Origin: Candidatus Bathyarchaeota archaeon
GTDB taxonomy: Archaea; Thermoproteota; Bathyarchaeia; Bathyarchaeales; Bathycorpusculaceae
Direction of reading: 5' to 3'
Length of the DNA stretch: 64,000 nucleotides
NCBI GenBank assembly: GCA_963806535.1
Contig: CAWDYC010000011.1
Coordinates: 32,001 to 96,000 of the forward strand
In this document: positions 19,433-21,481 of the stretch, one piece after another
Numbering within the stretch: the first letter of the stretch is position 1
Layout: each line of letters opens with the position of its first letter
Notes under the pieces: model-generated
What the model was told of the DNA's origin: nothing
Databases searched by the model: none
What the model saw: only the letters and a program-made list of their open reading frames with translations
Translations under genes and position numbers: made by a program

Positions 19433-19542
19433 TTGAAAAATGAAAGTAACCGGGCAGTTAAATTCAAAAAAAAGCCGCCATTCTCATGAATTACTTTTGA
19501 TTTTTGTTAATGTTTTTTAGAAGCGCTTGTTTGATTTGGGAT

Positions 19543-20782
19543 ATGAGTAATGCAATGATTTGGCGCAGGAACACACTTTCAAACGGTTTAACAGTGCTAC
19601 AATTTCCTAGGCAAGCTGCAAACACAACCCAATTGTCCGTCGCGGTTGAATATGGATCAAATCAAGAACCTGAAGAAATCGCTGGAGTCGCCCATTTCCT
19701 CGAGCATATGCTTGCTGGAGGCTCTGCAAAAAGGATACAATTATCACGGAGCATTGAGAATTCTGGCGGAATTTTAGATTTCTATACAGATCATGAGCAT
19801 ATGATGACTAGAATGGATATTTTACCTGGGAAATTAACCGAAGCTTCTTCTATTATTTCAGAATTGCTTTTTGATAATGATTTTGAGGAAGAAAAATTTA
19901 GGCAAGAACGCAAAATAATCCTCAACGAATTAGCCGAAGCCTTGGATGACCCAACAGAAAGAATTGAAGAATTGCTATTGAAGAATTTGTTTAAGAAACA
20001 CCCTGTGAATCGCCCAGTCGGAGGCTTTCCGAAAAACGTAAAACAATTAACTTTAGAAGAATTGAGTAACGCGCATAAAACCAATTATGTTCCTGCAAAA
20101 CATGATATTGATTTTGACGGGTAATTTCTCTGAGGAAACCACTGAGTTGGTTCTTAAAAACTTTAAGGACAGAAGTTTTGAAGCGTTGCCTCCGAAAAAG
20201 TTGTTTCCTGTTGAAACTGAAAAGCCTGCGCCTCTGGTTGTTGAGAAAAAAGCTGGAATAACTCAAGCCTACCTGAATATGGGTGCGCGAACAGTTTGTT
20301 CAACTCACCCTGATGCGCCTGTTCTGGATTTGATGAGTGCTTTGCTTAGCGGAGGAACCAATTCACGGTTATTTATAGAGCTGCGTGAGAAGAACGCGTT
20401 AACTTATGATGTGAATTCGGATCATAACAAGGGTTTAGATTTCGGTTTTTTCAACATTAACTGCGCCGTGAAGAAAAAGAATTTAGCGAAGGCTAAAGGA
20501 CTAATTCTTAAAGAATTAGCTAAGCTAAGAACTGAAAAGGTTCCTATCGATGAACTTGAAAGAACCAAGAATCTGATAGTGGGTGCTAGTCTTAGAGGTA
20601 TGGATGATCCTCAGGAATGCTCCGAGATTCTTGCTTACATGGAAATGCAATTTAGAAGTGAAAAAGCATTGGTTGACCACATCGCCAAAGTTAAGGCTGT
20701 TTCAAGCGAGGACATAATTGATGTTGCCAATACTTATCTTCAAGAGGATTGTTTATCAACAGTTCTTCTTAAGCCAAAATAA
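19543..20782 (+). CDS. M16 (pitrilysin/insulinase) zinc peptidase, frameshifted near 20095
   Basis: HFLEH (HxxEH), distal E, SRLF.ELREK..L.Y. Confidence 0.92.
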
Positions 20783-20828
20783 TTTTTTGATGAAAATGCT
20801 AAGATTCTAAAAAATTATGTTAGTAGGT

Positions 20829-20952
20829 GCCGTTTGGCAGACATCCTTTTTGCCGATAGGATGCCCAGAAATACACATTTGGGAGCCTAAGCCCCATAGT
20901 GCAAATTAGGGACGGAGCCATATCATGGCAGCAGGTTTGCCTACCAAACGAC
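20829..20952 (-). ncRNA. Candidate structured non-coding RNA (closing helix plus four hairpins)
   Basis: On the minus strand, GUCGUUUGGUAGGC pairs with GUCUGCCAAACGGC (three G-U pairs, which would be A-C on plus) around four hairpins. TATA-like TTAAA upstream (~20985), U-run downstream (20809-20814). GC-richer than flanks. Confidence 0.55.
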
Positions 20953-21091
20953 TCGTTGTGTTCGTCGATAATATCCTACGCATTTAAGAGCAAATAAAAA
21001 TTTGTGGTTGTGCTTTCGCAATCACAAGAGATAATTTTCGGCACGCTTGAAAACTAAGAGCTAAATACATATTGATAGTAATTGATAAGTT

Positions 21092-21481
21092 TTGAGGCGG
21101 AAGAAGTTGGAATTAGAAGAAATGAAAAAGGAAATTGAAGCTCTCGTTATAGCTAAAGGATTCTACAATAAACCCGAAGATATTCCGAAAAAACTGCTTT
21201 TTGCCTTCATCGAACTTGGCGAAGCCAGCGATGCTTGGAAAAAAGGTTTGCCAGAAGAAAAAATAGCAGAAGAACTCATTGACGTCATCTTTTACATTCT
21301 GGATGCAAGCCGCTTAGCCTGCCCACATATGAACATGGATGAAGTATTCAAAAAGAAACTTGAAAAAAACCTTAACCGCCCTTTCCAGTACGGCGAAGGT
21401 CACCGCAATAACACAGCCTTAAGAAAACATCAAGTAACAGCGAAGTTTTTTATGGCACTTGTTTCAAGCATTACTTGTTGA
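21092..21481 (+). CDS. MazG-like nucleotide pyrophosphohydrolase
   Basis: ELGE...EELIDV..Y (ExxE...EExxD). Confidence 0.85.
   Translation: MRRKKLELEEMKKEIEALVIAKGFYNKPEDIPKKLLFAFIELGEASDAWKKGLPEEKIAEELIDVIFYILDASRLACPHMNMDEVFKKKLEKNLNRPFQYGEGHRNNTALRKHQVTAKFFMALVSSITC

Follow-up and report, generated by a model that had tools for sequence, protein, structure and literature searches.

The window examined in this study, a 64,000-nucleotide stretch of DNA from a Candidatus Bathyarchaeota archaeon, carries between positions 20809 and 20990 an intergenic sequence whose minus strand was originally predicted to encode a novel structured RNA, drawn as a closing helix around four hairpins and credited with a promoter and a terminator of its own. 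Few uncultured archaea are as abundant in sediments, peat and soil as the Bathyarchaeia, and the locus raises the question of whether such an RNA exists in these organisms, what shape it takes, and what it could do. The sequence constitutes a gene of its own that encodes a stable, structured non-coding RNA of about 130 bases not described previously, and it is very likely that this is a real RNA gene whose product is shaped as one long irregular hairpin. The best explanation as a whole, which joins the independent gene and the rod-like product to a role as a protein-binding scaffold or decoy, is given a probability of roughly 0.5.

Extent, strand and fold of the RNA

The conserved RNA body comprises 128 nt on the minus strand (20825–20952), opening at 20952 with the 5' G of GUCG and closing at 20825 with the final U of an ACCU tail, and rests on sharp conservation edges in 22 and in 69 homologues, on covariance-model scores and on covariation. 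The range 20809–20990 contains this body together with part of the upstream region and a run of six Ts. When this 182-nt stretch was folded, the minus strand reached -60.3 kcal/mol (z = -4.60), a value equalled by none of 200 shuffles (mean -43.0 ± 3.8 kcal/mol), whereas the plus strand reached -45.6 kcal/mol (z = -0.85) and was equalled by 39 of 200. The original assignment of a structured RNA to the minus strand is thus upheld, as is the observation that the G-U pairs of the closing helix work only on that strand; across the homologues, paired cells hold 305 G-U combinations versus 123 A-C combinations.

The RNA is single-copy in its own 2.95-Mb genome, where a BLAST search found no paralogue and no rRNA or SRP mimicry at the sequence level, and where a short-word search returned, besides the RNA itself, only words of 16 nt or less with E values of at least 1.1, which is chance level. 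Total length among the 69 homologues ranges from 124 to 133 nt and takes nine distinct values differing by non-multiples of three, which indicates that the RNA is not coding. A small open reading frame was considered and rejected: in many homologues a single frame stays open across the RNA (median 42 codons), yet the lengths vary, and the start codon found in the window is absent from several homologues (e.g., L012).

Both ends of the structure are strongly conserved. The terminal helix joins 20939–20952 (5' strand) to 20829–20842 (3' strand) through 14 bp, in agreement with the closing helix of the original prediction, with 97% of cells paired over the 69 homologues and a mean majority-base identity of 0.90 for each strand. 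Eight of its 14 pairs show changes on both sides, and its second pair is a U-G wobble retained in 61 of the 69 sequences. Beyond the helix, the 3' end continues as an unpaired, conserved ACCU tail (20825–20828; mean majority-base identity 0.91 over 69 sequences). At the opposite end lies a nearly invariant apical module of 30 nt (20873–20902; mean identity 0.94), whose outer part consists of a GCAC/GUGU helix followed by a 2 × 3 internal loop (UA opposite AAU), and whose inner part consists of the helix UGGGGC/GC(U)CCCA, with a bulged U, capped by the tetraloop UUAG. Among the homologues in rows L062, L082 and L084, two carry paired single-base deletions at the apex and one carries two G-to-A changes, each matched by a C-to-U change; the paired deletions in L082 point to a loop of four bases closed by C-G in preference to one of seven. 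Between the two modules, a variable spacer (20903–20938 on the 5' side, pairing with 20843–20872 on the 3' side) has a majority-base identity of 0.65–0.79, compared to 0.90–0.94 in the end modules. The overall design is therefore a rod with invariant modules at both ends and a spacer between them that drifts in sequence while keeping its pairing and its length.

Pairing within the spacer is indicated by covariation and by the folds of individual sequences. Covarying long-range pairs were found at CUGCC/GGCAG, AAGG/CCUU and CCC/GGG, the first of which is replaced by the compensatory variants CUGUC/GACAG, AUUGCC/GGCAAU and CAGCCGCA/UGCGGCUG. In a MAFFT alignment of the 69 homologues that was fitted to no structure, 80.9% of the cells in the 27 inner pairs of the single hairpin were paired, and both the number of double-change cells (54, compared to 22.0 ± 3.8 in shuffles) and the covariation score (0.172, compared to 0.140) exceeded all of 500 shuffles. 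A second, model-fitted alignment of the same 69 sequences, which leans towards the single-hairpin model, had 88.4% of cells paired over the whole structure, with 25 of 41 pairs changing on both sides (14.1 ± 1.8 in shuffles) and 104 double-change cells (28.4 ± 4.7 in shuffles). None of 500 shuffles equalled these two counts or the paired-cell fraction, and when partners were moved by one to three columns as a control, at most 49% of cells remained paired.

Folded individually, 61 of the 69 sequences formed at least eight long-range spacer pairs in their minimum-energy structures, while six formed none. When these pairs were forbidden, the median loss in folding energy was 6.9 kcal/mol, and in 56 of the 69 sequences the loss was 3 kcal/mol or more. 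The helices in the middle of the rod have 63–73% of alignment cells paired, which is attributed to bulges and to shifts of register between species. RNAalifold, applied to the 69-sequence alignment, recovered the terminal helix and the apex but not the spacer helices, and the structure was therefore judged by per-sequence folds and by counts for named structures; for both reasons, the model is least secure in the register of its middle helices. Comparison of the homologous sequences nevertheless supports a predicted structure consisting of one long, unbranched, irregular hairpin of about 45–50 base pairs.

The interior of the original prediction fared differently from its closing helix. It envisaged a five-way junction enclosing four hairpins, together with a possible kiss between two loops and a sequence resembling a GNRA-receptor motif, and each hairpin can be drawn in the window sequence; in the structure-free alignment, 72.9% of the cells in its 22 inner pairs can pair. 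However, the covariation of these pairs does not rise above shuffle level, with 18 double-change cells (13.2 ± 3.1 in shuffles, 44 of 500 being as high) and a covariation score of 0.157 (0.152 in shuffles, with 91 of 500 as high). Where CCC at 20911–20909 changes to UUU, it is GGG at 20866–20864, its partner in the rod, that changes to AAA in the same species, while the partners assigned by the junction model remain unchanged. A junction-type fold also bears the median penalty of 6.9 kcal/mol given above. The supposed kissing interaction (UGCAC/GUGUA) turns out to be an ordinary nested helix of the long hairpin, and the CCUAA of the proposed GNRA-receptor motif is not conserved among homologues. 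A five-way junction is consequently a very improbable description of this RNA.

Genomic setting and distribution

Upstream of the RNA, conservation among the 69 homologues peaks between positions -54 and -40, counted from its first G, where the window contains a BRE-like CCACAAA followed by a TATA-like TTTTTATTT (20992–21007, minus strand), which, by the usual form of archaeal promoters, is taken to be a BRE and TATA promoter. This putative promoter persists where the upstream gene differs. The expectation that the RNA has its own promoter is supported by this box, but not by the element originally named for the purpose, TTAAA (about 20987–20983), which is present between the box and the helix but is not conserved. 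Given the usual spacing between TATA box and start, transcription would begin near 20967–20970, about 15–18 nt before the helix, and the resulting 5' leader of about 15–18 nt (20953–20970, minus strand) would include positions that are partly conserved.

Abutting the TATA box is an inverted repeat, TGTGAyTG-N-CwAyCACAA (21001–21028, minus strand), which was recognised from upstream conservation and as a hairpin in a scan; its halves are spaced by 8–10 bases, and nearly all 69 homologues retain it ahead of the RNA. Loose matches to the repeat plus TATA box occur at 44 places in the organism's own genome, many of them just before start codons, and the combination therefore seems to be a common promoter type of the organism that is not specific to the RNA. 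The repeat may be bound by a transcription factor of global scope or may extend the promoter in this lineage. Downstream of the RNA, the predicted run of six Ts is present (20809–20814, minus strand) and is likely an archaeal terminator. Runs of at least five Ts start within 45 nt of the helix in 39 of the 69 homologues (median position 20), and runs of at least four in 63 of the 69, these being raw counts in AT-rich spacers.

Followed in the direction of the RNA, an M16 peptidase gene is convergent downstream in 40 of the 69 loci, often within a few tens of bases, and a MazG-like gene is divergent upstream in 41 loci, with a gene for a small cysteine-rich protein (36 loci) and then pyrI (28 loci) lying beyond it. 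In other species the flanks are formed by alternative genes, such as those for a 2-oxoacid:ferredoxin oxidoreductase subunit and a small zinc-ribbon protein, and the RNA and its promoter are unchanged where the flanking genes differ. Varying neighbours around a constant RNA and promoter indicate that the RNA is neither a leader nor tied to one neighbour, but an independent gene, in keeping with the original view that it converges on the peptidase gene without being a leader. In the window, the stop codon of the peptidase gene and the RNA do not overlap. The peptidase gene itself (19504–20782, plus strand) consists here of two overlapping frames, one covering the N-terminal domain (19504–20124) and the other the C-terminal domain (20087–20782), while most relatives encode the protein as a single open reading frame of about 420 amino acids; the split represents either a frameshifted gene or an assembly error.

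An index search traced parts of the sequence to RNA libraries, and the contigs of four such runs (X2–X5), each from a study of its own, were compared with the locus. Three of these runs (X2, X3 and X4), from wetland and peat, contain contigs of 177–280 nt from close relatives that cover the core and give neither strand nor ends, while the contigs of the fourth (X5) cover flanking sequence only. Uncovered parts, differences in depth between the RNA and its neighbours, and one contig carrying adapter letters were not counted as evidence. Expression of the RNA is weakly supported by these contigs, as libraries of this kind may hold DNA.

The distribution of the RNA was examined with BLAST and with two covariance models, one built from 22 sequences (R1) and one from all 69 (R2). 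Of 120 genomes of the host genus, 69 each yielded a single R1 match, always on the forward strand, with scores of 44–159 bits compared to at most 37 bits on the opposite strand; among genus genomes that are at least 90% complete and at most 5% contaminated, 45 of 73 were positive. With BLAST, 21 of 36 further genomes from this genus contained the RNA (71–94% identity), compared to none of 24 genomes from 11 other families of the order. R1 likewise gave no match in 23 genomes of other genera in the family or in 115 genomes representing 11 further families of the order, and R2 gave none in 145 genomes from 69 other genera of the family. No diverged copy was found when the syntenic locus beside the MazG-like gene was searched with filters off in 20 RNA-negative genomes of the genus, where 12 weak matches were returned at E values up to 10, the best scoring 11.1 bits (E = 0.49).

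An exact 21-mer from the core was found in 50 contigs of a collection of species-representative genomes and in 84 metagenome contigs, the latter being exact matches only and not scored with a covariance model. By label, 45 of the 50 genome contigs belong to Candidatus Bathyarchaeia or Bathyarchaeota (several as isolates Bathy6), one to Candidatus Bathycorpusculum and one to an 'uncultured archaeon'. The remaining three (L102, L107 and L111) are labelled Limnocylindrales, Methanomassiliicoccales and Methanocella and are probably mis-binned Bathyarchaeia contigs. A search of 332 genomes of the family with an apical 17-mer, allowing up to one mismatch, gave three lone matches outside the RNA family (G084, G421 and G428); these lack the rest of the RNA, the two that were inspected lie in ordinary sequence, and all three were taken as chance.

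Among the genomes searched, the RNA is thus restricted to one genus, from about four in ten of whose species it is absent, and the original guess of Bathyarchaeia is correct. The lack of a match in 51 of the 120 genus genomes indicates that the RNA is dispensable or young. RNA-negative species of the genus tend to have smaller assemblies (many of 1.0–2.3 Mb) than RNA-positive species (mostly 2.1–3.5 Mb), which suggests that the RNA marks a subclade. An RNA confined to a single genus and missing from such a proportion of its species offers a rare chance to study the birth or loss of a structured RNA gene. The host genus consists of uncultured peat and soil archaea, and the sequence of the RNA also provides a ready marker for the lineage in metatranscriptomes.

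Candidate functions

In the mechanism proposed here, transcription directed by the conserved BRE/TATA promoter would begin about 15–18 nt ahead of the structure and stop 10–30 nt beyond it, in an oligo-T run, and the 128-nt core would fold into a rod with sequence-invariant modules at opposite ends. The RNA could then act as a protein-binding scaffold or decoy in which the two modules serve as recognition sites held at a fixed distance, and would work along the lines of SRP RNA or Y RNA, not by antisense pairing. The presence of two invariant end modules, a spacer of kept length, and invariant bases that are mostly paired fits protein recognition better than antisense action. The scaffold mechanism is put forward tentatively, at somewhat less than an even chance. 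The locus itself suggests no partner protein, its neighbours being unrelated housekeeping genes; the two-module rod design points to such a partner, which co-occurrence analysis could find. It is also important to note that invariant paired ends would fit RNA-RNA recognition or processing signals too.

There are several other potential explanations for a conserved rod of this kind. The RNA could be a trans-acting regulatory small RNA that pairs with mRNAs through its apical loop, its internal loops or its 3' tail (CACCU when the last helix base is included). Several conserved segments are unpaired in the model, and lineage-specific, stand-alone small RNAs with their own promoters are the commonest kind in archaea, which counts in favour of a regulatory role; however, the best-conserved stretches are mostly paired rather than exposed, and the short-word search of the RNA's own genome gave matches at chance level only, so that regulation by base pairing appears rather unlikely. 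Mimicry of tRNA is less likely than this. The apex would correspond to an anticodon arm, and the terminal helix with the following A-C-C to an acceptor end; such a mimic might be handled by RNase P or the CCA-adding enzyme, or might titrate a tRNA-binding factor or an anticodon nuclease. In favour of mimicry, nine consecutive bases of the apex recur in the anticodon arm of tRNA-Leu(UAG) from this genome, a conserved A and then C-C come after the helix, and the first seven helix pairs could pass for an acceptor stem. The tRNA was chosen by its anticodon, however, so that most of the nine-base identity follows from that choice and may be due to chance. In addition, the D and T arms are absent, the 14-bp helix continues into a rod far longer than a tRNA, and the deletions in L082 speak for a four-base loop rather than the seven-base loop of an anticodon arm. 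A more elaborate version, slightly less probable again, would make the RNA part of a young ribonucleoprotein of one Bathy-6 genus, its rod mimicking both ends of a tRNA at roughly twice their normal distance and thereby capturing or regulating a tRNA-handling factor. Candidate factors would then include a synthetase, a modification enzyme, the CCA-adding enzyme and an anticodon nuclease, and the RNA would represent a new class of archaeal tRNA-mimic regulator.

The remaining explanations deny the RNA either its independence or its existence. The proximity of the convergent M16 peptidase gene, seen in 40 of the 69 loci, would be expected if the sequence were a cis-acting or antisense element of that gene, such as a shared terminator working in both directions or an RNA antisense to the gene's 3' end. 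Clustering, however, found no M16 open reading frame downstream in the other 29 loci, some of which have another gene in its place while the RNA is unchanged, and the structure, which is specific to one strand, is far more complex than any terminator would need. Together with the lack of overlap between stop codon and RNA in the window, these results leave little probability for a peptidase-linked element. A long imperfect inverted repeat could also be a palindrome that functions as DNA, for example as a protein-binding site, a cruciform or a single-strand origin. Contrary to this, pairs of the G-U type strongly favour one strand, covariance-model scores depend on the strand, and the promoter is of the same type as that of many genes; the exact core is absent from the viral contig collection searched, and no replication or recombination gene lies nearby. 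A DNA palindrome therefore has about as slender a chance of being correct as the five-way junction.

Comparison with known RNA classes

A search of the whole 64-kb window against Rfam 15 at gathering thresholds gave no matches, and a search of positions 20700–21150 at E values up to 10 gave five weak, unrelated matches, none of them over the RNA body. ARAGORN found no tRNA genes in the window; in the whole genome it found 44, several with introns. The original view of a stand-alone small RNA that is not a tRNA, 5S rRNA, SRP RNA, RNase P RNA or C/D guide is borne out by these searches, and for the guides inspection by eye points the same way. Conservation, covariation and the lack of an Rfam match, named as checks in the original prediction, all turned out in its favour. 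No Bathyarchaeia-specific non-coding RNA was found in the titles and opening parts of abstracts that made up the literature covered. It is well supported that the RNA constitutes a new family that belongs to no family in Rfam 15.

The archaeal H/ACA and C/D guides are similar in being small stand-alone RNAs, and H/ACA guides also share hairpins with an internal loop and a short 3' tail. By the definitions of their motifs, an H/ACA guide should carry an ANA box immediately 3' of its lower stem, but the tail reads A-C-C-U in most of the 69 homologues, and no more than two rows (L082, perhaps also L084) have A in its third position. Inspection of the 69-row alignment by eye revealed no ACA box, no conserved C or D boxes and no tandem G-A pairs of a kink-turn or K-loop, nor was a bulge-helix-bulge splicing motif seen by eye. 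The likeness to tRNA is limited to the G at the 5' end, the A-C-C that comes after the helix, and the similarity of the apex to the anticodon arm of tRNA-Leu(UAG); this RNA has no cloverleaf, and neither ARAGORN nor Rfam detects a tRNA at its position.

The 5S rRNA is of similar length and has its ends joined in a terminal helix, but it forms a three-way junction, whereas covariation here supports an unbranched hairpin. The genome's only match to the 5S rRNA family (RF00001) is a normal 5S rRNA located elsewhere (C5:356697–356816, 69.8 bits), with none at the RNA. The only match to archaeal RNase P RNA (C9:153724–153912, L136) spans 189 nt and scores 22 bits, below the cut-off of 84 bits; the genome's 5S and SRP RNAs score normally, and this lineage may have a divergent or reduced RNase P RNA.

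The Y RNAs, which bind Ro60/Rsr in animals and some bacteria, are comparable in several respects: they are about 100–130 nt long, are encoded by stand-alone genes, and form rods with internal loops whose ends are paired in a long, sequence-conserved terminal stem. Within the stem of a Y RNA, Ro recognises a conserved bulged helix. Unlike this RNA, they have no counterpart of the conserved apical module, and the 3' tail of this RNA is not oligo-U. No Rfam Y RNA match was found at the RNA, and the TROVE/Ro60 domain (PF05731) was not found in the organism's own genome (92% complete), while control genomes matched as expected. The SRP RNA (4.5S or 7S) model does not match the RNA either, which is confined to one genus, and the genome's only match to archaeal SRP RNA is a normal one (C4:359408–359723, 145 bits). 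In its proposed working, however, the RNA would resemble SRP RNA in being a rod whose ends carry conserved protein-binding modules separated by a spacer helix.
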